A DNA stretch of 64,000 nt from Promethearchaeati archaeon SRVP18_Atabeyarchaeia-1. Its GTDB lineage: Archaea > Asgardarchaeota > Atabeyarchaeia > Atabeyarchaeales > Atabeyarchaeaceae. Location: assembly GCA_037308085.1 (NCBI GenBank), contig CP147779.1, forward strand, positions 896,001 to 960,000. Direction: 5' to 3'. The notes under the pieces were generated by a model, which worked only from the letters and a program-made list of their open reading frames with translations, had not been told where the DNA came from and searched no databases. Of this stretch, positions 9,341 to 63,968 are shown piece after piece. How positions within the stretch are numbered: position 1 is the stretch's first letter; each line of letters begins with the position of its first letter. Made by a program: the position numbers and the translations under genes.

Positions 9341-10330
9341 ATGAAATTCGGTATCGAATTTGTTCCGAATAGTCCGATAGACGAAGTCCTGAAGTGGGCG
9401 ACTGTGGCCGAGCAGGAGAAGTTCGACTACATCTGGATAACAGACCACTTCAATAACAGAAACACCTATGTAACTCTGACATCGATAGCCATGAAGACTT
9501 CATCAGCGAAGATAGGTCCTGGTGTGACCAACCCCTACCTCATCAATCCAGCATGGACCGCTTCCGCTGTCGCTAGCCTCAATGAGGTGTCCAAAGGTAG
9601 AGCAGTTCTGGGGATCGGAGCGGGAGATCGAACCACATTATCGTATCTTGGCTTGGAACAGAAGAGTCCGGTATCCGCATTGGCTGAGTGTGTAGACATA
9701 ATAAGAGGATTGCTGAAAGGCGAAGAGGTCAGGATTCCAGGAAAGATATTCAATGTAACTGGTGCGAGGTTAAACTATCATGCAGACTTCGTACCTATCT
9801 ACCTCGGTGTTCAAGGACCCAAGATGATGCGGTTGGCAGCGAAGATCAGTGATGGTGTCTTGATAAATGCATCCCACCCTACTGACATCTCGATGGCAGT
9901 GAAGGAAGTGCGGAACGGTCTTGACGAGGCTGGGAAATCTTCCTCACAGTTTGACATGGCCGCCTATACCAGTTTCTCGGTTAGTAATGACCCGGCAGAA
10001 GCTGCCAAACTGGCTAGACCTGTCGTGGCGTTCATTGCTGCAGCCAGTCCGGACGCCCTTCTGGAACGCCATGGGATCCCCGCTGAACGCGTTAAGGTAA
10101 TCAGAGAAGCGCTAGCGAAGGGTCAATTCAAGGAAGCATTCAAAGCTGTCGACGATGAGCTATTGGAAGTTTTCTCGATAACGGGAACCCCCGCCCAATG
10201 TACAGAGAGAATATCCAAGATTATTAGGGAAGGGGTGTCCCAACTCGTAATTGGTTCACCGATAGGGGTAGACAAGGTAAAGACACTTGAATCGATCGGG
10301 TCTGAAATCATGCCACAGTTCCTTCAATAA
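9341..10330 (+). CDS. mer: F420-dependent methylene-H4MPT reductase
   Basis: MKFGIEFVP, WITDHFNNR, GPGVTNPY, GVLINASHP, LVIGSPIG. Confidence 0.92.
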   Translation: MKFGIEFVPNSPIDEVLKWATVAEQEKFDYIWITDHFNNRNTYVTLTSIAMKTSSAKIGPGVTNPYLINPAWTASAVASLNEVSKGRAVLGIGAGDRTTLSYLGLEQKSPVSALAECVDIIRGLLKGEEVRIPGKIFNVTGARLNYHADFVPIYLGVQGPKMMRLAAKISDGVLINASHPTDISMAVKEVRNGLDEAGKSSSQFDMAAYTSFSVSNDPAEAAKLARPVVAFIAAASPDALLERHGIPAERVKVIREALAKGQFKEAFKAVDDELLEVFSITGTPAQCTERISKIIREGVSQLVIGSPIGVDKVKTLESIGSEIMPQFLQ

Positions 10331-10447
10331 GGAAATCAGATCACACAACAACACAGGACTCATGTCTTGTCCCGCTTTCTTCTTTTCTTATTTAACATGC
10401 AACTGACTTGAAAGAAGAGTTGGGAGCCTCTGCTTCTGTGCAGGCTC

Positions 10448-11353
10448 TCAGGACGATGTCTTCAATACGTCAAATCTGGTTGCAACAATGTTGCATCCGA
10501 AAACTCCTTTGACTGCCTTAAGCTCTTTGACGAGCATGTTGATCAGATTCCTGTTGGCATCTGCGATTTCTTTATCCCTTGATTCTGCCTTCGTATAGCC
10601 TTGCCCTAGCTGCTTGATCTTGCTCAGGAAGTCCTCGGGTGGCTTTGAAGCAGGGTACAGCTTTCCAATCCAGTTGATTGTCTCTTCTGAGTCGATTGGG
10701 TAGAGCGTAACGATGAGTGGAATTCCCATCGCGCTTGCCAGATTGGCAACCGCCTTTGCTTTTTCGCTTTCATAGATAGGTGTAGTAAGGAAATATGATG
10801 CGCCAGCGTCCTTCTTCTTCCTCATCAAGGTTTCCGCAATTTCAAGTCTTGCAGGATCAAATCCGACGACTGCGCCGACCTCGAAGCCTGTCGATTTGGG
10901 TATCTCTTCTCCGGAGAAGATTTTCCCTTCGTTCATCTCCTTGATCATTTTCAATAGCTGGATTCCATCTAGGTCGAAGACTGGTTGTGCTTTGGTATAT
11001 TTTCCAGTCGTTGTGTGGATTCCAGTTGAAACTAGGATGTTGGTCAATCCTAGTTGGCTGCCTGTCAGGATATCAGAGAATATTCCAAGTCTGTTCTTGT
11101 CTCTTGCATCCACGGCATATATAGATTCGAGCTTCAGCCTTTCCTTCATCAGGTAGGATGGAACGAGCGTGTTAAGAGACAATGACGCCTTTGCATCACG
11201 GCTCACGATTATTGCGTCCACAGAGGCTTGCAGACCCTTTGCCCTATCCAGAAGCTTCTCTATTGATGTCTGACTATTAACTTCGAGCTCTCCTAAGGTC
11301 ACGAACTTTCCTTCTTTCAGTTTTCCGACAAAACCGCTTGGGCTCTTAGGCAT
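10448..11353 (-). CDS. Second MetF-like protein (degenerate active site)
   Basis: Paralog of 5572 gene (GELE, ARDKNRLG, PVFDLD) but TGD changed to TGI and TQ to TP. Confidence 0.75.
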   Translation of the reverse strand: MPKSPSGFVGKLKEGKFVTLGELEVNSQTSIEKLLDRAKGLQASVDAIIVSRDAKASLSLNTLVPSYLMKERLKLESIYAVDARDKNRLGIFSDILTGSQLGLTNILVSTGIHTTTGKYTKAQPVFDLDGIQLLKMIKEMNEGKIFSGEEIPKSTGFEVGAVVGFDPARLEIAETLMRKKKDAGASYFLTTPIYESEKAKAVANLASAMGIPLIVTLYPIDSEETINWIGKLYPASKPPEDFLSKIKQLGQGYTKAESRDKEIADANRNLINMLVKELKAVKGVFGCNIVATRFDVLKTSS

Positions 11354-24490: not shown

Positions 24491-24556
24491 TCGAGATCAT
24501 GCGAACCAGAATACTTCTCAATCAGACACAAAGAGGCTTCGGAAAGGCGTTGCACG

Positions 24557-24613
24557 CCTGTCCCTGCCGGCAGCCCTGTTCATTAAGGTTTCACACCGGC
24601 TAGTTCATCCAGA
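24557..24613 (-). ncRNA. SECIS candidate of vhuU (AUGA/GA core overlapping the stop codon)
   Basis: Minus strand: UCUG-G-AUGA-A-CUAGCCGGUGU-GAAA-CCU-UAAUGAAC-AGG-GCUGCCGGCAG-G-GA-CAGG; same layout as the selD element. Confidence 0.65.
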
Positions 24614-24754
24614 TCCGATTTGAACTTCTTTGTTCATTAGCTCTTTACCATTCTCGTCAACCACGAGGAGATGGGCTGCGCATGAAAGTCAGCAATCGTA
24701 ACAGCGCACTACCATTTCCAGGAGGTTGAGTACTTTCTCGTCGACTTCTGGCAT
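24605..24754 (-). CDS. vhuU: VhuU selenoprotein, [NiFe(Se)] hydrogenase small peptide subunit
   Basis: Manual translation [49 protein letters not shown]; in-frame TGA at 24689-24691 at the Ni-ligand position; SD GAGGA; absent from ORF track. Confidence 0.9.
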
Positions 24755-24784
24755 CGGTTTATTTTCCTCTAGTTTCTGTGAGTC

Positions 24785-26149
24785 CTAAGCTGCGATCATA
24801 GGCTTCGGCAGCTTCAACTTTTCATGTGCCTTGTCTTCAATCACCTGCTTTGCAATGATCTTCAGAGACTTCTCTATTGCCCCGATGTTGTGGTTCGTGG
24901 CAACTATCAGGTTTGCCTTGGTAATTATTCCTTCCTTGTCTGTCCAGTAATTGTGTATAAGAGTCCCTCTTGGCGCTTCCACCACTCCAACTCCGCACCC
25001 CTCGAGCGGCTCGACCGTTTCGAGCTTATAGTCCTTGCTGACAATGTCTGGATCCTCGAGCAGTCTCTTGGCACTCCCCACAGCGTCAAGTAACTCGATA
25101 ACCCTCGCCCAGTGATACGCGAATGTTGCATGGCAGGGTCTTCCAAGCTTATCTCTGAACTGCTTAAGCGCTTCGTTTCCACGGGGAGTAGCCATCTTGT
25201 CAACGACGTTTATTCTCGCCAATGGACCTGCTCTCCAAATGCCGTTGGGGTACCCTGCTGGCTTATAGAATAGGTGTGTGGCATAGCAATGGGGAACTAC
25301 CTTTTCTCCCGCGACATCCATGTATTTGCTGCTTGGGACGTCAGCCTCAATCTTTCCCGAGGGCGACATGACTCTAATGTTGCCATCATAGAAGTTGTGT
25401 ACGCCATTCTTCGCTAATCCAATGTAGTATGTGTCTACGACGCCGATCTTTGTTACAACATCCCAGTAGTCTTGGACTATTTTCTGCAGTAGCCCAGCGC
25501 TGAACTCGGCTAGCTCCATTGCCCTATCCATCCTTTTTATCCACTCGTCTCTCTGCTCTTCTGTTAGTCCCTTTGTCATGCCTCCGGGTATTGCTGTGAC
25601 TGGGTGGACTGATTTCCCTCCAACGACTGCGCACAACTCTTGGCCATGCTTCATTAGTTCAATAGCCTTCTTTCCTGCATCAGGGAGCTTGCTGATGACC
25701 GTCACAACGTTGCGGGTCTCCGGTGGAGCGAAGGGTCCCAGAAGGAAGTCCGGTGCAGCTAGAACGTAGAGGTGAAGTGCGTGACTGCTAATCTGCTTCG
25801 CCAGGAGAAGCAACTCTCTCAGCTTCTTCGCTGGTTCAGGCGGGTTGACTTTCCAAGCATCTTCAACAGCCTTCACAGAGGCTAGGTGGTGAGGTTCGGG
25901 GCAGATGCCACATATGCGAGGCGCTATAATGCGGGCATCTTCCGCCAATCTGCCTTCAAGAAACTTCTCGAAGAATCTCGTGGAGTTGACGTTGAACTGA
26001 ACGTCAGCGACTTTTCCCTTATTCATCTTTATTGTTATCGAGCCGTGCCCCTCAAGGCGAGTTATGGGTTCGATCTTGATCTCGTCTTCCTTTTGTTCCT
26101 TAGCCACACTTTCCTTCTGCTCCTTGGCAACGCTCGCTCTACTTTTCAT
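24785..26149 (-). CDS. vhuA: F420-non-reducing hydrogenase large subunit, split type lacking L2
   Basis: EPITRLEGHG, RICGICPEPHH (L1), EAPRGTLIHNY; ends without DPCxxC. Confidence 0.92.
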   Translation of the reverse strand: MKSRASVAKEQKESVAKEQKEDEIKIEPITRLEGHGSITIKMNKGKVADVQFNVNSTRFFEKFLEGRLAEDARIIAPRICGICPEPHHLASVKAVEDAWKVNPPEPAKKLRELLLLAKQISSHALHLYVLAAPDFLLGPFAPPETRNVVTVISKLPDAGKKAIELMKHGQELCAVVGGKSVHPVTAIPGGMTKGLTEEQRDEWIKRMDRAMELAEFSAGLLQKIVQDYWDVVTKIGVVDTYYIGLAKNGVHNFYDGNIRVMSPSGKIEADVPSSKYMDVAGEKVVPHCYATHLFYKPAGYPNGIWRAGPLARINVVDKMATPRGNEALKQFRDKLGRPCHATFAYHWARVIELLDAVGSAKRLLEDPDIVSKDYKLETVEPLEGCGVGVVEAPRGTLIHNYWTDKEGIITKANLIVATNHNIGAIEKSLKIIAKQVIEDKAHEKLKLPKPMIAA

Positions 26150-27056
26150 CTTTTCTCACACTCCTGAGCTTGGAAAGCGCTGATGAAGCATATGTGAACT
26201 TGTATAGTTGCCCTACAGGGTCTCTGAACGAACCAAGCATCTTCTGCAGATCCATGTCTGCTATCCCCCCGAATGTTCCGATTAGCCTTGACCCCTGATC
26301 AATTACCCCTTCAGGAGGGCCGCTACACCCCTGACATGGATTGTTCGCTGTTGGACACTGAGCGCCACATCCTGCACGGGTTCCAGGACCCATACAGAGA
26401 TAGCCCTGATTCAGAAGGCACTTCTCCGGATCTGGTCTCCCTTCAAAGTCTCTGTGAAACACCTTGATATTCTTCTCTTCCTTCTTTCTCTCACACTCAT
26501 CGCAGACGCTCTTTATTGAATGTTCAATGGGCTTCCCATTTAGAAGCGACAGAGTAGCGCTAGCGATCTGTTCGGACGTGGGAGGGCAGCCCGGAAGGTA
26601 TGCATCAACCTTGACAAGCTGGTCATTACGAGGGACGAACTTGTTAATCCCAGGAACATTTTCAGACGGGATTATGCCTTTTTCGAGGACTGTCTCAGAC
26701 TTTATGTACTTCCTTTCAAAAAGATCCTTCCTGGGATACAGGTTTGCTATGCTTGGTACTCCACCATAGGTCGAGCACGTGCCAAGGGCAACTAGTGCCT
26801 TGGCCTTTTCCCTGCATAGCTTCAGGAGATGCACATCCTCTTGAGTGCGGCAGAGCCCCTCAACGAACGCCGCATCGACCCCACCTTTAGGCAACTTCTC
26901 CAAGTGTTCAAGCTTGAAATCAACTGCGGCGACCCAGTATTGAATGTCGAGCAGAGGCAGTACGTCAAGCAGTTTCTCATTCAGATCCAGAAGTGATTGG
27001 TGACATCCCCAACAGCTTGATAACTGCATGAAAATGACTTTCGCTTTGTTAGGCAT
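26139..27056 (-). CDS. mvhG: F420-non-reducing hydrogenase small subunit
   Basis: SCWGCH, LGTCS, PGCPP, CDEC, CLL..GYLCMGPGTRAGCGAQC..CQGC. Confidence 0.92.
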   Translation of the reverse strand: MPNKAKVIFMQLSSCWGCHQSLLDLNEKLLDVLPLLDIQYWVAAVDFKLEHLEKLPKGGVDAAFVEGLCRTQEDVHLLKLCREKAKALVALGTCSTYGGVPSIANLYPRKDLFERKYIKSETVLEKGIIPSENVPGINKFVPRNDQLVKVDAYLPGCPPTSEQIASATLSLLNGKPIEHSIKSVCDECERKKEEKNIKVFHRDFEGRPDPEKCLLNQGYLCMGPGTRAGCGAQCPTANNPCQGCSGPPEGVIDQGSRLIGTFGGIADMDLQKMLGSFRDPVGQLYKFTYASSALSKLRSVRKDEK

Positions 27057-27073
27057 GATTTTTCCACTTCCTC

Positions 27074-27547
27074 TCAAAGCAGATCCTTTTCGTCCAGAGT
27101 CTTCCCTGGTTTACTACCTCTCAGCGGGTTCGGACCGATTTTCTTGAGTACTCCAACGTAGTCTCTCATGACTTCGGCTAACTTGCTTCCCTCACTTGCA
27201 GATATCCACTCAAGCCGAATCCGCTCAGGCTCAAAGCCTGCCTGCTGGACGAGCTTCCTCAAGAGATGCACGCGGCGTTCGGTCTTGTAGTTCCCATTGA
27301 CGTAGTGGCAGTCGCCCGGGTGACACCCTGAGACAAGTACCCCATCGGCGCCGAGTTCCAGCCCCTTGATCATGTAGGCTGGATCAAGACGGCTTGTGCA
27401 CATGACTCTGACAAGTCTCAGGTTAGGAGGATACTGTATTCTGCTGGTGCCAGCCATATCGGCGCCGGCGTAGGTGCACCAGTTGCATACGAGGCCAAGT
27501 ACGAATGGTTCAAATCCGTCGTTTTTTCCGCTACTTTCCTTGGTCAC
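27074..27547 (-). CDS. mvhD: Hydrogenase [2Fe-2S] subunit MvhD (Cys form)
   Basis: CNWCTYAGAD, RVMCTSR, GCHPGDCHY, WISASEG. Confidence 0.95.
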   Translation of the reverse strand: MTKESSGKNDGFEPFVLGLVCNWCTYAGADMAGTSRIQYPPNLRLVRVMCTSRLDPAYMIKGLELGADGVLVSGCHPGDCHYVNGNYKTERRVHLLRKLVQQAGFEPERIRLEWISASEGSKLAEVMRDYVGVLKKIGPNPLRGSKPGKTLDEKDLL

Positions 27548-27560
27548 CTAATACCCTCTC

Positions 27561-29519
27561 CTATTGAATCTGCTTCTCAGCTAGCAGCGCTTCTATCTGA
27601 GCAAAGATCTGCGAGTCCTTGAAATGGTTCTGTGTTATGCAGCCACTTGGACACGTTGCAACACAGCACCCGCATCCCTTGCACTGCACGCTGTTAATCT
27701 TCGCTTTTCCTTCTTCTATGGATATTGCGCCAAATGGACACATGTCTATGCAGGACAAGCAGCCACTGCACTTCTCGGAATTGACGACGCTGTAGAAAGG
27801 CTCAACTTCAACCTTCCCCTTTGACATCAGCGACGCAGCGCCGGATGCTGCTCCCTTCGCTTGAGCAACAGCATCAGGAATGTCTTTCGGTCCTTGCACA
27901 GCTCCCGATATGAAGATTCCATCAGTGAGCGTATCGACTGGTCTAAGCTTAGGATGAGCCTCAAGATAGAAACCATCTGCGCTGCGTGATATCTTGAGTA
28001 GGTGCTGAACTTCTTCCGCATCCTTCCTCGGGACGAGTCCCACACTGAGCACAACAAGGTCAGCGTCGAGCTCGACGGGTCTTCCGAGTTCTGTGCTTTC
28101 GGCTCTCACGATCAAGTTCCTAGTTGTCGGGTCCTCTAGGACTTCTGCTGCTCTGCCTCGGATGTAGGTAATGCCGTATTCTCTCTGAGCGCGCTCATAG
28201 AATTCCTCGTAACCCTTACCGAACGCGCGAACGTCCATGTATAGTACATAAACATTCGTGTCTGGATGGTGCTCCTTGAGTTGCCTCGCGTGCTTTGTCG
28301 CATACATACAGCAGACTCTTGAGCAGTAAGCGTTCTTCCTGACGTTCCTCGATCCCACGCACTGGATGAATACTACTCTCTTGGGCACTTTAAGATCCGA
28401 AGGTCTCACAACCTCTCCACCAGTAGCCCCGAAGGCGCTAAGCATTCTTTCAACCTGAAGACCAGTTACGACGTTCTCGTATGTTCCGTATCCGTATTCT
28501 CCCGTCGGGTCGTACGGGTCGAAGCCAGTCGACGCTATTATCGTTCCAGCCTCGACTTCTTCCTCCGTGGGTTGCTGGTTGAAGTCTATTGCTTCGGGCT
28601 CGCAGGCTTTTACGCATAGTTTACACTTTATGCACTTGTCCATGTCAATTGTGTACTTATTTGGAACAGCCTGCGGGAACGCCATGTAAATCGCCTTCCT
28701 TGGCTTCAGACCCAGCTCGAATTCATTGGGAACACTAACGGGGCACACTTCTTCACACTTCCCGCATCCGTTGCACTTGGATTCGATAACGTATCTGGGT
28801 TTCTTCTCTATCTTGACCTTGAAATTCCCAACATAACCATCAATACTCTTGACTTCCGAGTATGCATGAAGCTTGATGTTTGGGTGGCGACCAACCCCAG
28901 TCATCTTTGGAGTGAGAATGCAGGCCGAGCAGTCCATTGTCGGAAAAGTCTTGTCGAGCTGGATCATACGCCCTCCAATGGTGGTATTTTTCTCGACTAA
29001 GTGAACTTCAAACCCAGCTTCGCCCAAGTCCAAGGCTGCAGATATCCCAGCTATTCCTCCACCGATTATGAGGCAGCTTTTCTTAACTGGAACTTCGATG
29101 GGTTCAAGCGGCTCTATGTTGGAGGCTTTTGCCACCGCAGATCGCATTAGATCCTTTGCGATCTCAAAGGCCTTCTCAGGCTCGTGCATATGGCACCATG
29201 TGTCGTGTTCTCTGATGTTTGCCTGTTCGAACAAGTATGGGTTTATGCCCGCGGCCCTGATGGCATTCCTAAAGGTGGGCTCATGCATTAGCGGGCTGCA
29301 GGCAGCTACAACTACGCGGTTCAATTTGTGCTCCTTAACGTCATTTCTTATCATTTCTTGGCCAGGGTCGCTGCACATGAACCTGTAGTCCTTGGCCAAA
29401 ACGACATGGGGCAGCTTCGAAGCGTACTCCGCAAGCTCCTTGACGTTGATGACGCCTGCGATATTAGTTCCACAATGACAAACATAGACACCGATTCGAA
29501 GTTCAGACTCGTCGCTCAT
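27561..29519 (-). CDS. hdrA: Heterodisulfide reductase subunit A (Cys form)
   Basis: RIGVYVCHCG, GGGIAG, DKTFPTMDCSAC, QCVGSR, CSRVCC, ferredoxin motifs. Confidence 0.96.
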   Translation of the reverse strand: MSDESELRIGVYVCHCGTNIAGVINVKELAEYASKLPHVVLAKDYRFMCSDPGQEMIRNDVKEHKLNRVVVAACSPLMHEPTFRNAIRAAGINPYLFEQANIREHDTWCHMHEPEKAFEIAKDLMRSAVAKASNIEPLEPIEVPVKKSCLIIGGGIAGISAALDLGEAGFEVHLVEKNTTIGGRMIQLDKTFPTMDCSACILTPKMTGVGRHPNIKLHAYSEVKSIDGYVGNFKVKIEKKPRYVIESKCNGCGKCEEVCPVSVPNEFELGLKPRKAIYMAFPQAVPNKYTIDMDKCIKCKLCVKACEPEAIDFNQQPTEEEVEAGTIIASTGFDPYDPTGEYGYGTYENVVTGLQVERMLSAFGATGGEVVRPSDLKVPKRVVFIQCVGSRNVRKNAYCSRVCCMYATKHARQLKEHHPDTNVYVLYMDVRAFGKGYEEFYERAQREYGITYIRGRAAEVLEDPTTRNLIVRAESTELGRPVELDADLVVLSVGLVPRKDAEEVQHLLKISRSADGFYLEAHPKLRPVDTLTDGIFISGAVQGPKDIPDAVAQAKGAASGAASLMSKGKVEVEPFYSVVNSEKCSGCLSCIDMCPFGAISIEEGKAKINSVQCKGCGCCVATCPSGCITQNHFKDSQIFAQIEALLAEKQIQ

Positions 29520-29825: not shown

Positions 29826-30704
29826 TCATGAGACTTTCTCAAGCAAACCTTTCGTCTTGATTTTGTGCAGAGAGAGTCCTAGCTCCTCGGAATTCATTCC
29901 AAACGCTATTCCAATCAATTCCGGCAAATATAGAACGGGTAGGTTGTAGTCCGCTTTTTTCGCGCTTCTCAGTTCGACTTGACCAGTGTCAAACTGTAGA
30001 AAGCATGTTGGGCACAGAACAACAAGACAATCTGCAGAGGATCTTACAGCTTGTTGTATCTTCTCGTAGGTGAAGTCGAGTGATCCGTCTTTGTCAATGC
30101 CTCTTATTGTGGCACCACAACAGGCAAGTTTCTTCAGGTATGGAACGCTGCGTGCACCAGTTGCTTCAACCAGTTCGTCTAGGAGCCGTGGTTCCTCAGG
30201 GTTGTCAACGCGCAAAATAGAGCTTGGTCTGAGAACGTGGCAGCCGTAGTGAGTAGCCACATTCAGCCCGTTCAAGCTTGTGATGGTGTTCTCCCTTATC
30301 CTCTGTGGTCCTATCTCGTTGTGTAGGACCTCGAGCAGGTGCTTGACCTCGATCTTGCCCTTGAATGTTCTGCCTATCTTGGCAAGCATTGAATTTACGT
30401 CGGCCCTGAGTTTCAGATCCTTCTTGAGAGTCTCGTTGACAGTCTTCAGGGTTTCAAAGCAGCCGTTACATAATGTGAGTATATCGGTGTTCATTTCTTC
30501 AGCTATCGCTATGTTTCTCGCTCCCAGGGCTAGCCATGTTGCATAGTCAAGAGACTGAATTCCTACAGGGTCGGGACAGCAGCTAGTTTCTTTCATCTCC
30601 AATAGTTTGACACCAAGCGCACCCAGTACTCTCCTCGCTGATGCCTCCAAATTCGGGAGCCTAAGAGGAATCATGCAACCCAAGAACAATGCGTAATCTT
30701 TCAT
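29826..30704 (-). CDS. hdrB: Heterodisulfide reductase subunit B
   Basis: FLGC, SCCP, CNGC, HYGCH, CCGA, CPTCFLQFD. Confidence 0.94.
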   Translation of the reverse strand: MKDYALFLGCMIPLRLPNLEASARRVLGALGVKLLEMKETSCCPDPVGIQSLDYATWLALGARNIAIAEEMNTDILTLCNGCFETLKTVNETLKKDLKLRADVNSMLAKIGRTFKGKIEVKHLLEVLHNEIGPQRIRENTITSLNGLNVATHYGCHVLRPSSILRVDNPEEPRLLDELVEATGARSVPYLKKLACCGATIRGIDKDGSLDFTYEKIQQAVRSSADCLVVLCPTCFLQFDTGQVELRSAKKADYNLPVLYLPELIGIAFGMNSEELGLSLHKIKTKGLLEKVS

Positions 30705-31261
30705 TGGTCGGCCCCCTCATCCTTATGATCCTCAAGTAGTTTGTCGATTCCTGTCATCTTAACTATGGTGCGCACTTCGTCGACGTTGGCTACGGGCGCT
30801 GGGGGGAGATCGAGCGCCTCTCTTCTCTTGGCTATTGCTGACATTAAGGGAATTGACCAGCCTGTTGCGCATATCTGTTTTAGCTCCTCCTTGATGTACT
30901 CCTTCACATCTCCATCTTGTGCCGCCTTATTGCGCAAGGCTAGGACGACATGTGATGGTTTGACATCCTGGGGGCATCGTTCCTGACAAGTGTGGCAAAG
31001 TAAACACAGCCATATGGTTTGCTTTGGTATCTTATCCTCCCGTTTTGAGAGGAACCTCTGAACCATTTTTCTTGGGTTGAATTCTGGGTTTTTCTTGGCC
31101 ATGGGGCAGCCGCCCGTGCAAGTGCCGCACTGGTAGCAGGGCTTTACTGAGCTTTCACTTTCGGTTCGCAGAGCCTCGCCTATCATGCTCAGTCCTCCGT
31201 GAGGTTTCGCGGCTTCAGCGTCTGCCTTGGGCTGTTCCATAGGCTCTTCCCCTTCCCGCAA
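30701..31261 (-). CDS. hdrC: Heterodisulfide reductase subunit C
   Basis: CYQCGTCTGGCP, WLCLLCHTCQERCP. Confidence 0.93.
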   Translation of the reverse strand: MREGEEPMEQPKADAEAAKPHGGLSMIGEALRTESESSVKPCYQCGTCTGGCPMAKKNPEFNPRKMVQRFLSKREDKIPKQTIWLCLLCHTCQERCPQDVKPSHVVLALRNKAAQDGDVKEYIKEELKQICATGWSIPLMSAIAKRREALDLPPAPVANVDEVRTIVKMTGIDKLLEDHKDEGADQ

Positions 31262-41165: not shown

Positions 41166-42359
41166 TCATCTGTTTCCAGGCAAAGGTTCCTTCGCATAGA
41201 ATTTCGCTGAGTATTTCTTCAGCTCGTCTTCGCTCCAAATCCAGCCTTGCTCTTTCTTGTTATCTATGAAGATCATCCGATCTGTGCAACTGAAGCACGG
41301 ATCAATCGCGGCCAATACAATCGGTATGTCCGCGATATATCCTCCTTTAAGCATCTCGCAGGCTGCGGGGATATTTGCGAGCGTGGGTGCTCTTACCTTG
41401 ACCCTCTCAGGCTTGTCAGTTCCATTTGATCTTATGTAGTGGATGAGTTCGCCCCTGGGTGCTTCGACATGGCTAACTGCCTCGTTAGGAGGTATTTTCC
41501 TCGTCAGTTTAGTTCTGAAGTCGCCGTTGGGGAGGTTATCAAGAATCCATTTGCAGATGTTTATCGCTTGGAATGTCTCTTCCACTCTTACTACTACCCT
41601 TCCGGCTACATCGCACATGTCACTCGTTATGACGTCGAACGGAACCTCGTCATATATCCCGTAGGGGTCATCGCGCCTTACATCGTATTTTATTCCGCTC
41701 GCACGTAGGGTTGGTCCCACGGTGCAGAGAGACCTTGCGACGTCAGGCTTGAGCACTCCGATCCCGATGGCTCTCGAGAGTAGCGTCTTCTCTCCTAGGC
41801 ACAGCTTCTTGTAGTATTCTGTTCGCTCTTGGAGAACCTTCAGCGTCTTGTTCACTTTCCTTATCTGCTCCGGCGTTATATCTCTGCGGACTCCTCCAAT
41901 GGTGTTGTAGGCGTAGTTGACACGATTACCGGTCAGCATCTCAAGTGCATCCAACACGACTTCACGGTCTCTCCAGACGTACATTAGGAGCGTGTCCCAG
42001 CCGACTTCATGTCCGGCGACACCCAGCCAAAGAAGATGGCTATGGATCCTGTTTAGCTCGGAAACGAGCGTCCTCAGGTATAGTCCCCTGGGGGGTACCT
42101 GAATCCCTCCGCATTCCTCTACTCCCTGGGTGAAAGCGGTAGTGTGGGCATGGGAGCAGATTCCACAGATTCTCTCAGCCAGGTATATGTCCTGTAAGAA
42201 GGTCCTGGCCTCCATGGCTTTCTCTATGCCCCTATGATTGTAGCCAACTCTCGCAGTAACACCGACTACGTATTCTCCTTCGACATCAAATGTAAAGTTT
42301 GAGGGCTCTTTCAGGGCAGGGTGTTGCGGTCCAACGGGAACCTTAAAGGTCTGAACCAA
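41166..42359 (-). CDS. Group 4 [NiFe] hydrogenase large subunit (EchE/MbhL-like)
   Basis: GPQHP, ERICGICSHAH (L1), EAPRGE, DPCFSCTDR (L2) plus C-terminal extension. Confidence 0.93.
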   Translation of the reverse strand: MVQTFKVPVGPQHPALKEPSNFTFDVEGEYVVGVTARVGYNHRGIEKAMEARTFLQDIYLAERICGICSHAHTTAFTQGVEECGGIQVPPRGLYLRTLVSELNRIHSHLLWLGVAGHEVGWDTLLMYVWRDREVVLDALEMLTGNRVNYAYNTIGGVRRDITPEQIRKVNKTLKVLQERTEYYKKLCLGEKTLLSRAIGIGVLKPDVARSLCTVGPTLRASGIKYDVRRDDPYGIYDEVPFDVITSDMCDVAGRVVVRVEETFQAINICKWILDNLPNGDFRTKLTRKIPPNEAVSHVEAPRGELIHYIRSNGTDKPERVKVRAPTLANIPAACEMLKGGYIADIPIVLAAIDPCFSCTDRMIFIDNKKEQGWIWSEDELKKYSAKFYAKEPLPGNR

Positions 42360-42447
42360 TTCGCTGATTCCTCCACTACTGATGAATAATCGTTACGCCT
42401 TATTCAGATTGAGCAGGCTCTTTTTAACTTCTTGTATCTGTTTCGTG

Positions 42448-42939
42448 TTATTTCTGCTGCTGTTCGGGTGATTTCCAGTCTTTGCGAAGAGGGTAAACTC
42501 CCTCGGGCCAATCGTCGGATAGTTCGAGCCGAGCGAGGTTCGGGTGTCCCTTGAAATCTATGCCAAACATGTCATGAACCTCTCTTTCGTACAGAGTAGA
42601 CCCTGGGATCAGATCCGTAATCGTCTCGATTCTGGGTTTGCTGCGTGGGACCTCAACCCTAAGATTCACTACGACGTTCTTCACGAAGAAGTGAAAGATA
42701 ACTTCGAAGTTCTCGCCAAGGTCCGCACCCGACATCGTTGTAAGATGGTATAAACCCCAATTGTCTTTCATGAACTGAACAGCCTTGCGGTGTGCCCCAG
42801 CTTTGACTTTGAAATAGATCCTACGAGCCCTCTGCACTTTGGATTCGACCAGATCATCACCAAGGGCCTTCTTCAGTTCCTCGACCATCCCATTTTCGAC
42901 GTCAAGCTTCTCGGACACGGTCTTCTTCTCTTCGGTCAT
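42448..42939 (-). CDS. NuoC/MbhK-like subunit
   Basis: YEREVHDMFGIDFKGHP...YPLRKD. Confidence 0.9.
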   Translation of the reverse strand: MTEEKKTVSEKLDVENGMVEELKKALGDDLVESKVQRARRIYFKVKAGAHRKAVQFMKDNWGLYHLTTMSGADLGENFEVIFHFFVKNVVVNLRVEVPRSKPRIETITDLIPGSTLYEREVHDMFGIDFKGHPNLARLELSDDWPEGVYPLRKDWKSPEQQQK

Positions 42940-42959
42940 TTCTCTCAGATCCTCCTCGA

Positions 42960-43391
42960 CTAGGAGCTTTTCAGCTTAGCCAAAAGCTTGGCAACGCCAT
43001 CAATGATCGCTACAGGCTTCGGCGGGCATCCAGGAATGTACATGTCAACAGGGATTACACTATCCACTCCACCCATCACGTTGTAGCATCCCTGAAGTAC
43101 TCCTCCAGCCATGCCACAACCCGAACCAATGGATACGACGAACTTTGGCTCTGGCATCTGCTCATAGACTCTCCTCAATCTTGGGGCAACTTGGCGAGTT
43201 ATGGGTCCTGTAGTTATTAGTACATCTGCATGTCTCGGTGAAGCCATGAGTACGGCGCCAAACCTCTCAAGGTCGTACCGAGGAGTCAGAGCAGCTATGA
43301 CTTCAATATCGCAACCGTTACATGATCCAGTGTTAAAGTGGAGAAGCCACGGCGACTTTACCCGAGCCCACTTAACGACTTTCTCGAACAA
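42960..43391 (-). CDS. NuoB/MbhJ-like hydrogenase small subunit
   Basis: GSCNGCDIE, SPRHAD, PGCPP. Confidence 0.92.
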   Translation of the reverse strand: MFEKVVKWARVKSPWLLHFNTGSCNGCDIEVIAALTPRYDLERFGAVLMASPRHADVLITTGPITRQVAPRLRRVYEQMPEPKFVVSIGSGCGMAGGVLQGCYNVMGGVDSVIPVDMYIPGCPPKPVAIIDGVAKLLAKLKSS

Positions 43392-43595
43392 GGTGATCTT
43401 ACCTTCCTCTAGTTCCTTCTAAGAATAGAAAGTATCTTGACTTCTCTTCGCGAGATCAGAAATGGTATTTAACGATTACCGAGTACTTTTGACAAATACA
43501 CTCACTTAACATTATTCCTGTATCAGGTCGCTCGTTATTGTGTTAACCGGCATCTCGTCGGGTCGATTATGAATGATAATACCTGTCCAGTGGCA

Positions 43596-43973
43596 CTACC
43601 ACTTCCTTTCTTCTCCCGCCTTCCAGATGGGGACAGCGATCAATGCTACGAACAGCAGGATCGTATAAAATAGGACAAGCATCAAGCCCAAAGGTGTGAA
43701 GGTGCCAGCAGTGGCTGCCGTAATTCCAAGGAAGATCATGAATGCCGCTGACTCGAATATGACGAAAAACACTGCGTAGTAGAATCTGTGGATGTAGAAC
43801 TGAACGTTGCCAGCCTGCACTTCCTCACCGCATGCATAAGTGGATTCCTTGTCCTTAGTCTTCTTTCCTTTAGGCGCCATTCTACGTCCTACGGCATAGA
43901 GCAAAAGTGTAAAGGTAAGAACGAGGAGAAACGCGATGACAGGAATTCCAAGTATCTCGGTCAATGAAATCAT
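43596..43973 (-). CDS. NuoA-like membrane subunit
   Basis: KESTYACGE loop, FVIFE, three TM helices. Confidence 0.82.
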   Translation of the reverse strand: MISLTEILGIPVIAFLLVLTFTLLLYAVGRRMAPKGKKTKDKESTYACGEEVQAGNVQFYIHRFYYAVFFVIFESAAFMIFLGITAATAGTFTPLGLMLVLFYTILLFVALIAVPIWKAGEERKW

Positions 43974-44231: not shown

Positions 44232-45266
44232 TTAGACAAGTTTAGACTGACAAAGCTAGTTAGCGAGCATGGTTGAAGCTGCAAGATCCCACAGAGCGAC
44301 CTAAGGCACCTTCTGGAGAGTGCTGGGCTTTCAAGTGTCATTGGAAACCCCAATATTCTAGCGGGTCCGTTGCCAGCGGAGGACTCAGCGATAATCAAGC
44401 TCAACGAAGATACGTGCCTGGTGCAGACGGTTGATTTCTTCACACCAATCATAGACGAACCGACGATCCAAGGTCAGATCGCGGCCTGCAATGTGACCAA
44501 CGATCTCTACGCGAAAGGGGCCACAGATATTCTCGGTGTGCTAGTCATAATGGGCTTCCCTCCGCAAACACCCAATCAGGTTGCTGTCGACTTGCTGAAG
44601 GGCTTCAGTGACTTCCTTCAAGAACTTGGTACACAAGTGGTAGGTGGGCACACGATCAGCAATCCCTGGCCAATTCTAGGCGGTGCTGCCACAGCCACAA
44701 TGAAAATTCAGGACGTCGTATACAAGAAGGGTGCAAAGGCTGGTGATAATTTGGTCTTGACTAAGCCTCTGGGGGTACAACCAGTAATGGCAGCGTACCG
44801 CCTCCTGAAGGAAGAGGCATCCGGTGACGAACTACTCGGCAAGATTAGCCGCAAAACCATCAATGACGCCATTAGGAAGACAATCTCGATGATGACAACA
44901 AGCAACAAAGCCGCTGCAGAATCGATCCTTGAGGTCAAGGTGAACGCGGCAACCGATGTCACTGGCTTCGGTTTGCTGGGGCACGCGGCGGAGGTGGCTG
45001 AACAGAGTTCCGTGGACCTGGAGATTACCAGTATCCCTGTAGTCAAAGGAAGCCTCGAAATCTCGGACATCTTGGGCTACTCACTCAGAGCCGGGAGCGC
45101 ACATGAGACCGCCGGCGGCATGCTACTTTCAGCTGCCGAAGACAATGTGGAGCAACTTCTGGAGACTCTGCGTAGGCACCGCGTGAATCCGTACGTGATC
45201 GGGAAGGCTCGCACAGGTAAAGGCAAGGTCAAGCTATCGAGGGATCTGCAGTTCATCGAGGTGTGA
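44232..45266 (+). CDS. selD: Selenophosphate synthetase, selenocysteine-containing
   Basis: In-frame upstream extension of ORF 44370: LDKFRLTKLVSEHG-U-SCKIP with TGA at 44274-44276; VQTVDFFTP, GGHT, LTKPLG, TDVTGFGLLGH, ETAGGML; start uncertain (TTA 44232 or CTG 44247). Confidence 0.92.
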
Positions 45267-62404: not shown

Positions 62405-63517
62405 CTAAGAGCATTTCCCACTTATGTCTATTCTATGGTGGCAGTTAGAACAGTGATTGTCCGTCCTATCGATGTCGTGATATTTCGTGTTCAGTCCGAC
62501 GCGCTCTATTAGAAGTCTCTTACAAACTGGACAGTAGGTATTCTCTCCTACGTGCCCAGGAATATTCCCAACATAAACATACTTCAGACCTACTTCTAGA
62601 CCGATCTCCCTAGCTCTCTCCAGCATATTGACTGGCGTCTGCTCAGGGAGGCCGAATTCCGACGCTCTGTAAGCTGAGTAGTACCTCGTACAATGCCACG
62701 GAACTGTTGACCCCAGCTCATCTTTGATTCTTGTGGCAATTGATCTAAGTGTATTCTCATCGCCGTTGACTTGGGGAATCACCAGCGTGACTATTTCAAC
62801 ATGCCTTCCGCGCCTCTTAACTTCTCTCAGGTTGCGCCACACCAGCTCAACGTTGGCACCGCAGTACTTGCTGACAGCTTCGGCATTCCCCTTCACGTTA
62901 ACACAGAACGCGTCGCAACCGCTTCCGATAATAGCGCTGAGCGCCTCAGGAGTAGAATACAGGTTTGTCACGTAGGTGTTATAGAGACCTGATTGCTTGG
63001 CTATACCCATAACATCAAGAGAGTACTCGAAAAGTGACGTGGTTGGTTCATTGAAGGAGAAGGACGTCCCGCGGCAACCAGATTTCTTAGCCATTCCAAC
63101 GAGTCTCTCAGGGCTAATGTAATTCGCCTTAGAAGGGTCTGGGCGAGCTTTGCTGATGTCCCAGTTCTGACACCAGGGGCACGTGAAGTTGCAGCCGTAA
63201 CTTCCAACAGTCAGCGCTATGCTCCCTGGAGAAAAATGGAAAAACGGTTTCTTTTCAATAGGGTTCTCGCTAATATGTGATATGTCACCATACGTCAAGG
63301 CATAGAGCCTGCCTTCGATATTCAATCTTGCCCTGCAAAAGCCTGTCTTGCCTCTTTCTATCACGCATCTTCGTTCGCAAGTTTCACATTTGACGTCCCC
63401 TCTTGAGAAGGGTTCGTACAGTAGTGCCTCCTTTAACTGACCTTTCCAGAGAAGCTCGCAGTCTGAAGCCAAGTTAACTCGTCCCCTACTTGCGTCTGGA
63501 TCTGTCCTTGAGTTCAT
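62405..63517 (-). CDS. amrS: AmmeMemoRadiSam radical SAM enzyme
   Basis: CETCERRC, PIEKKPFFHF, GCNFTCPWCQNWDIS, YVYVGN, TYCP.C. Confidence 0.88.
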   Translation of the reverse strand: MNSRTDPDASRGRVNLASDCELLWKGQLKEALLYEPFSRGDVKCETCERRCVIERGKTGFCRARLNIEGRLYALTYGDISHISENPIEKKPFFHFSPGSIALTVGSYGCNFTCPWCQNWDISKARPDPSKANYISPERLVGMAKKSGCRGTSFSFNEPTTSLFEYSLDVMGIAKQSGLYNTYVTNLYSTPEALSAIIGSGCDAFCVNVKGNAEAVSKYCGANVELVWRNLREVKRRGRHVEIVTLVIPQVNGDENTLRSIATRIKDELGSTVPWHCTRYYSAYRASEFGLPEQTPVNMLERAREIGLEVGLKYVYVGNIPGHVGENTYCPVCKRLLIERVGLNTKYHDIDRTDNHCSNCHHRIDISGKCS

Positions 63518-63968
63518 CGACGATCAGCTTCACAACTCTGTCGATGCTATTGTTGACCCCCTTGCTGAGCTCGGTCGAATAAGCCTTCAGTTCAGTAATC
63601 TCAATTCCGTAGATCACGATTTCTCTGGGCATTTCGTCAGGGTACAGGGTCTTTCCTATCTTGATCATCTCGGCTAGCCCAATATCGTGAAGGGACATCG
63701 GATGCAACGAGGTCTTGACCTTCTCTTCTAGGTCGTTTTGGGTAAGCCGGTGTATTCTGCCCGGTTTGGCACCCGCAACTGCATCAATGAACAAGGCGCG
63801 CTCAACACCCTTAATGAAATTAAGAAGCGCTATGCCACCAACCCCACCTTCAATGAGTTCGACCTCATCAGGCAGTTTCTCGAGGCGCAGCCTGTTCAGG
63901 ACGTGGACTCCGACTCCTTCGTCCCCGAGTATTATGTTTCCAATGCCTATGACGACCACACGTTTCAT
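63486..63968 (-). CDS. Hydrogenase maturation protease
   Basis: GIGNIILGDEGVG, IDAV, SLHD. Confidence 0.92.
   Translation of the reverse strand: MKRVVVIGIGNIILGDEGVGVHVLNRLRLEKLPDEVELIEGGVGGIALLNFIKGVERALFIDAVAGAKPGRIHRLTQNDLEEKVKTSLHPMSLHDIGLAEMIKIGKTLYPDEMPREIVIYGIEITELKAYSTELSKGVNNSIDRVVKLIVDELKDRSRRK

Follow-up and report, generated by a model that had tools for sequence, protein, structure and literature searches.

A selenocysteine-containing VhuU peptide predicted to complete a split [NiFeSe] hydrogenase in an Atabeyarchaeia genome, and the cysteine that precedes selenocysteine in Asgard VhuU

Introduction

A hydrogenase large subunit encoded in the genome of Promethearchaeati archaeon SRVP18_Atabeyarchaeia-1 ends without its nickel-binding L2 motif, and a short open reading frame with an internal UGA lies directly downstream, raising the question of whether the two together specify a complete enzyme and how the UGA would be decoded. 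The locus was explored in a stretch of 64,000 nucleotides (contig CP147779.1, positions 896,001–960,000 of the forward strand, assembly GCA_037308085.1; hereafter the window, whose numbering is used throughout unless stated otherwise) from a genome that consists of a single contig (2.81 Mb; 49.6% G+C). The small gene, vhuU, very probably encodes a selenoprotein, the missing piece of a split group 3c (Vhu/Mvh-type) [NiFeSe] hydrogenase, with the UGA decoded by the selenocysteine (Sec) system of the genome and a downstream SECIS element, and with the cysteine adjacent to Sec as a trait of the clade.

A first-pass annotation, made from the sequence of the window, had described this peptide as a hidden selenoprotein. 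In the sense of unknown that description does not apply, as both the vhuU gene family and its occurrence in the Atabeyarchaeia are already in the literature. A VhuU of ~50 aa with one Sec was described together with its SECIS in the Lokiarchaeota (Mariotti et al. 2016, PMC4989117), the VhuU family has been reported for 68% of the Asgard genomes that use Sec (Huang et al. 2024, PMC11227280), and NiFeSec’s small subunit of ~50 aa (VhuU) has been named as a selenoprotein of the Atabeyarchaeia (Valentin-Alvarado et al. 2024, PMC11291895), whose genomes possess VhuU, SPS, HdrA, and Prx-like selenoproteins as well as the Sec machinery and SECIS elements of eukaryote-like type. Only the replacement of Pro by Cys before Sec, near-universal in the Asgard archaea, may not have been reported before; the main texts of these three papers contain no comment on it.

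Results

Operon and split large subunit

The hydrogenase genes belong to one minus-strand operon, in which the VhuG, VhuD, and HdrABC partners were all matched by Pfam. In the direction of transcription, hdrC (30701–31261; Fer4 dicluster domain) and hdrB (29826–30704; CCG domain) are followed by hdrA (27561–29519; Fer4 and FAD-binding domains), vhuD/mvhD (27074–27547; PF02662, 172 bits), the small subunit gene vhuG (26139–27077; PF01058), the large subunit gene vhuA (24785–26149; PF00374), and vhuU (24605–24754), an hdrCBA-vhuDGAU arrangement of the electron-bifurcating group 3c type. VhuA (454 aa) carries the RLEGHG and RICGIC (R-I-C-G-I-C-x-x-x-H) motifs and ends before any D-P-C-x-x-C-x-x-H. 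The vhuA stop codon and the vhuU ATG are separated by 30 nt (24755–24784), after which vhuU extends over 49 codons to a TGA stop codon (24605–24607). Translated on the minus strand from 24754 to 24605, the gene yields a 49-residue peptide that contains the L2 motif from R17 to His28 (24671–24706; translation and alignment) and continues for 21 residues beyond the L2 His; the coordinates given in the first-pass annotation hold, and the plus-strand frame across them is meaningless. The codons of interest within the motif are those of Cys18 (24701–24703), Cys21 (TGC, 24692–24694), Sec22 (TGA, 24689–24691), Cys25 (24680–24682), and His28 (24671–24673), with Cys21 standing in place of the canonical Pro before the Ni-ligand Sec.

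Amongst solved chains, VhuA scored highest against 9sfi_g (418 aa, 445 bits), the partner of the small chain 9sfi_M, and lower against the fused MvhA (372 bits). Judged from these alignments, the point at which the Atabeyarchaeia VhuA/VhuU is split is that of the methanogen VhuA/VhuU pair, in keeping with the first-pass proposal of a split [NiFeSe] hydrogenase completed by VhuU. The nearest named record to VhuA is from Candidatus Atabeyarchaeum deiterrae (Atabeyarchaeia-2, CP147780.1; 85% amino acid identity), followed by the “LC30” Promethearchaeati MAG and then by many Thorarchaeota. Many vhuA genes from the Thorarchaeota and related lineages stop at the same split point (…L-P-D-P-M-I-K) and have no vhuU within 450 nt downstream (loci L025–L029, L033–L036, L041–L043, L047, L048, L050, L053, and L054); for these copies, the L2 peptide must be encoded elsewhere, or the copies are incomplete.

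Selenocysteine codon

The VhuU peptide aligned to the C-terminal end of the MvhA and FrhA chains of solved structures, with U22-L-S-C25-A-A-H28 falling on C-L-S-C-A-T-H and U22 on the first Cys of D-P-C-L-S-C-A-T-H. It also aligned to 9sfi_M, a chain of 27 residues that is annotated as a subunit of an F420-non-reducing hydrogenase and reads R-A-Y-D-P-X-Y-S-C-A-A-H-M, in which the X is Sec and is the residue opposite Sec22. As the first-pass annotation had proposed, the UGA of vhuU occupies the Ni-ligand position and is predicted to be a codon at which Sec is inserted.

A six-frame search of 400 Asgard genomes recovered the vhuU peptide in 305 (E ≤ 0.001), with >200 strong matches, and exactly one internal TGA was present in all but one of the best 150 matches listed, the exception having none. 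A codon-level pattern (R-x-[YF]-D-x-U-x-x-C-x-x-H) matched 210 of the 400 genomes, compared with two matches for a reversed-pattern control in the same set, and the pattern search placed the TGA at the Sec22 position across Asgard vhuU. Because the same reading frame with one TGA at the same position recurs in >200 of the 400 genomes, vhuU is not a chance frame.

Selenocysteine machinery

The genome encodes SepSecS (382 bits), SelB/EFSec (289 bits, above the cut-off), and a PSTK-like kinase (147 bits, below the NCBIfam cut-off of 290 bits). The selenophosphate synthetase gene, selD, lies within the window on the plus strand (44232–45266; TIGR00476, 250 bits) and possesses one in-frame TGA; SelD is itself a selenoprotein with the sequence H-G-U-S-C-K (UGA at 44274–44276), and its stop codon is also UGA. 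Adjoining selD is a minus-strand module (41166–43973) for a group 4 membrane-bound-type [NiFe] hydrogenase or complex I-like assembly, consisting of a large subunit with D-P-C-F-S-C-T-D-R (41166–42359, minus strand) and homologues of the 30-kDa, 20-kDa, and chain-3 subunits.

A tRNA-Sec gene is located outside the window, between PSTK-side genes and SepSecS (contig positions 196287–196462, plus strand; 10288–10463 of the extracted locus L021). Its identification combines a 21-bit Infernal match to RF01852 with a reading of the sequence by eye, by which the gene has an acceptor stem of 9 bp (GGCGCCCGA / UCGGGCGCC) and after it G-CCA with the CCA encoded, a UCA anticodon in the loop C-U-U-C-A-A-A on a 6-bp anticodon stem, a long variable arm, and a 4-bp T stem (9/4 design). 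Several intervening sequences interrupt it, in the D-arm region, in the variable arm, and at the junction of the T stem and the 3′ acceptor strand. Rfam reported neither a SECIS nor a tRNA-Sec, whether applied to the window at gathering thresholds or at E ≤ 1 to 18 kb around the Sec genes, and no tRNA-Sec was found in the genome by ARAGORN or by three custom cloverleaf pattern scans, which missed the gene because it is broken by several introns. ARAGORN recovered nine tRNA genes without and 22 with its intron search in this 2.8-Mb, 97%-complete genome, most of whose tRNA genes are interrupted. A 2026 preprint reportedly describes introns in Asgard tRNA genes, in agreement with the interrupted genes seen here. 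The first-pass annotation had allowed for a genome without Sec machinery; tRNA-Sec, PSTK, SepSecS, SelB/EFSec, and SelD all appear to be encoded, and by these matches the genome is predicted to carry the archaeal/eukaryal-type Sec trait.

SECIS element

The Sec codon is positioned ~80 nt upstream of a eukaryote-like (Asgard-type) SECIS element on the minus strand (24561–24608), assigned from its layout and from covariation across Asgard vhuU loci. Read in the direction of transcription, the element consists of AUGA (24605–24608), which includes the vhuU stop codon, a 5′ stem strand (24594–24603), an apical region with GAAA (24573–24593), a 3′ stem strand (24563–24572), and GA (24561–24562). 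Published descriptions of Asgard SECIS elements give an AUGA core, an upper stem of 7–15 bp, an A-containing apical loop, and then GA or AA, all just after the coding sequence, and the published model allows the AUGA of VhuU loci to serve as the stop codon as well (PMC4989117, PMC11227280). The element in the window has the features of the lokiSECIS and type I–II eSECIS-like classes of the same two papers.

In each of the 41 distinct Asgard vhuU 3′ regions the stop codon is TGA, and the nucleotide before it is A in 35, U in 4, and C in 2. A layout of NUGA, 0–2 nt, a stem of 7–10 bp, a loop of 8–21 nt beginning in most cases with purine-A-A-A, the complementary strand, and GA was recovered in 37 of the 41 loci versus 13% of shuffles, with AA in place of GA in one locus. 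The stem sequences vary widely between Asgard lineages, and each predicted stem pair displays 6–11 double compensatory changes (24 Asgard sequences). Folded as a single sequence, the vhuU 3′ region is no better than shuffles (z −0.8); the support for the SECIS comes from the comparison between loci and not from folding energy. Directly 3′ of the element is a short hairpin, G+C-rich and closed by a GCAA-type loop (24546–24558, minus strand), which is kept in most Asgard vhuU loci and in this window overlaps a possible lower SECIS helix (UCUG/CAGG).

Cysteine before selenocysteine

The first-pass annotation had drawn attention to Cys in place of Pro directly before Sec, and this substitution is real and is unusual relative to the methanogen and bacterial enzymes, which in all homologues sampled have D-P-C or D-P-U. 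The D-P-C form was present in 44 of 44 fused bacterial and archaeal homologues from the VhuA locus search and in 34 of 34 motifs of a methanogen-side sample (78 of 78 fused homologues in total), while 9sfi_M, the methanogen VhuU in the PDB, has D-P-X. Methanococcales VhuU in general possess D-P-U. The Atabeyarchaeia VhuU lacks the canonical D-P ahead of the Sec/Cys ligand; this D-P belongs to the consensus and is not a requirement for catalysis.

From the pattern search of the 400 Asgard genomes, 150 matches were listed, seven of them obvious chance matches and 143 VhuU-like, and ~139 of the 143 have D-C-U. The exceptions amongst those listed are two D-P-U sequences from one genus (G130:C76:4219–4254 and G131:C11:166582–166617), both with CCY-UGA, one D-N-U (G125:C128:7803–7838), and one D-F-U (G220:C174:32–67). 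Amongst the Asgard orthologues, the Cys before Sec is encoded by either TGC or TGT, which places the constraint at the level of the amino acid, not of the RNA. The Cys is also kept in rare Asgard isoforms that read D-C-C, DNA-verified in genome G118 (locus L165, G118:C227) and in a Thorarchaeota genome, where the small ORF follows its own 438-aa VhuA-like gene; seven further D-C-C isoforms are database ORFs of 49–58 aa, read as protein. The pattern of substitution points to Pro-to-Cys as a protein-level trait shared throughout the Asgard VhuU/VhcU clade and not peculiar to this genome, and as a change independent of recoding.

The ‘VhcA/VhcU’-like isoforms at L166:128–1602 (plus strand; genome G318 of the Thorarchaeota-like family f31), at L165, and in protein P0008 have a small ORF that reads R-C-Y-D-C-C-L-S-C-S-A-F, with Cys for Sec. 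In three independent sequences the L2 His, the usual protease cleavage mark, is replaced by Phe. The isoform is rare, occurring in one of the 86 genomes of family f31.

The neighboring positions behave differently from the first-pass description of extra cysteines, of which the part concerning the Cys before Sec stands and the part concerning the Cys after Arg does not. The latter is variable, with R-C in most Asgard VhuU and R-S, R-N, or R-A in several families, and R-C-Y-D-P-C is found in ordinary methanogen enzymes; for both reasons, C-x-x-C-U-x-x-C is not a conserved unit. A suggested correspondence between these cysteines and the additional Sec positions of multi-Sec Asgard selenoproteins is unsupported, as no VhuU copy amongst the best 150 matches listed has a second internal UGA, and neither U-U nor R-U variants occurred amongst the pattern matches. 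Multiple Sec residues have been reported for VhuD, HdrA, and PrxL, and a single Sec for VhuU (PMC4989117).

C-terminal extension and maturation

The 21-residue extension after His28 (24608–24670, minus strand; L-L-V-V-D-E-N-G-K…) aligned to the C-terminal extensions of FrhA (H-V-M-V-V-D-D-E-D-K…, residues 373–401 of 3zfs_A) and MvhA, in agreement with the earlier comparison to tails removed by a maturation protease. The protease gene noted at 63486–63968 is likewise genuine, a HycI-type hydrogenase maturation endopeptidase on the minus strand (PF01750, 71 bits). A second HycI-family gene is present elsewhere in the genome, giving two such genes for five [NiFe] large-subunit genes. From the established maturation pathway, the tail is likely to be removed by a HycI-type endopeptidase.

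Discussion

Two features of the locus are open to more than one explanation, the UGA and the Cys that precedes it. Were the UGA a true stop codon or a sequencing error, the locus would be a decaying hydrogenase gene and the downstream frame fortuitous; the interruption of the vhuU frame under translation table 11 and the silence of Rfam are what such an account would draw on, and yet hundreds of independent assemblies share this TGA, the L-S-C-A-A-H frame downstream of it, and a SECIS that covaries, the genome has the full Sec machinery, and the remaining genes of the operon are intact. This account is accordingly given almost no probability. Pseudogene, chance, and sequencing-error readings of vhuU are ruled out by its conservation across the Asgard genomes.

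For the Cys, it is conceivable, at long odds, that the codon before UGA is kept for the sake of recoding, with the P-site codon or its tRNA favoring Sec insertion over termination and the protein playing no part. Pro donates the peptidyl chain poorly when it is in the P site, and the clade that shows the change is also the one with eukaryote-like SECIS elements; against this, isoforms with TGT or TGC for UGA, which involve no recoding, keep the Cys, the Pro-UGA of VhuU is decoded in Methanococcales (9sfi_M), and two Asgard genomes likewise have CCY-UGA. A rather better, though still doubtful, prospect is that the vicinal pair (D-C-U-x-x-C-x-x-H, or Cys-Cys in the Cys isoforms) is a working redox or proton-handling dyad, in which Cys21 and Sec22 might form a reversible selenenylsulfide, as at the Cys-Sec end of thioredoxin reductase, or Cys21 might supply an extra thiol for proton relay. 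The retention of Cys in nearly all of the Asgard VhuU listed despite synonymous codon variation, its persistence where Sec has become Cys, and its absence from every methanogen and bacterial relative sampled speak for a dyad, while the Pro, Asn, and Phe found in some Asgard lineages speak against it, and clade-wide conservation may be simple inheritance. A further point against a dyad is that no conserved partner Cys co-varying with D-C-U was found in VhuA, in which the only differences seen were clade-wide ones between Asgard archaea and bacteria. Catalysis cannot depend strictly on the Cys, given that Pro, Asn, or Phe takes its place in a few Asgard VhuU. It is most likely either a tolerated clade-specific substitution or a thiol able to interact with the neighboring selenol, in protection or proton handling.

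With vhuU read as a selenoprotein gene, the UGA at 24689–24691 would be decoded as Sec by tRNA-Sec, PSTK, SepSecS, SelB/EFSec, and SelD, under the direction of the Asgard-type SECIS whose AUGA core holds the vhuU stop codon. VhuU would then supply the C-terminal nickel-binding L2 motif to VhuA, Sec22 and Cys25 would ligate the Ni-Fe center together with the two L1 cysteines of VhuA, and the segment after His28 would probably be cut by the HycI-type protease once the metal is inserted.

The closest known counterpart is the split F420-non-reducing [NiFeSe] hydrogenase of the Methanococcales (PDB 9sfi/9t1s, chains g and M), which is divided at the same place, is linked with VhuD, VhuG, and Hdr, and has a VhuU that, like the peptide here, starts with V-D-E-x-x-L-N-L and places Sec at the first L2 ligand, followed by x-S-C-A-A-H. 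The two differ in that the methanogen VhuU has D-P-U and, as deposited (27 aa), ends one residue after the His, whereas the Asgard form has D-C-U and the 21-residue extension, and in that the Asgard SECIS is eukaryote-like (AUGA…GA) whereas that of methanogens is of the GAA_A type. Fused group 3c large subunits, from methanogen MvhA to those of Bipolaricaulota, Anaerolineae, and Thermotogae-like MAGs, are homologous over the whole of VhuA (35–43% identity) and on through the L2 segment and C-terminal extension; they are single polypeptides with Cys for Sec and D-P-C, in contrast to the split, Sec-containing, D-C-U enzyme of the Atabeyarchaeia. The periplasmic [NiFeSe] hydrogenases of Desulfovibrio and Desulfomicrobium (2wpn, 1cc1) likewise have Sec as a terminal Ni ligand in L2, but they are group 1 enzymes, unsplit, with a bacterial SECIS, and match VhuA at ~117 bits in its N-terminal part only. 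From the published Asgard VhuU, which are of the same family and ~50 aa in length, contain one Sec, and have a SECIS of the form AUGA-stem-A-rich loop-GA/AA for which overlap with the UGA stop codon is possible, the Atabeyarchaeia gene has no substantive difference.

The vhuU gene illustrates that the electron-bifurcating Hdr-Vhu hydrogenase of this Asgard archaeon depends on selenium and that the VhuU peptide escapes standard gene callers, both of which are already in the literature for this lineage. An interaction between the thiol and the selenol, if true, would bear on the resistance of [NiFeSe] hydrogenases to oxidative damage, and the Pro, Asn, and Phe variants of VhuU are natural ‘mutants’ with which the role of the Cys can be probed. 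Should Cys and Sec prove to act as a dyad, the Ni-Se site would be protected or gated, for example shielded during oxidative episodes, and the Asgard Vhu would represent a mechanistically distinct subclass of [NiFeSe] hydrogenases.
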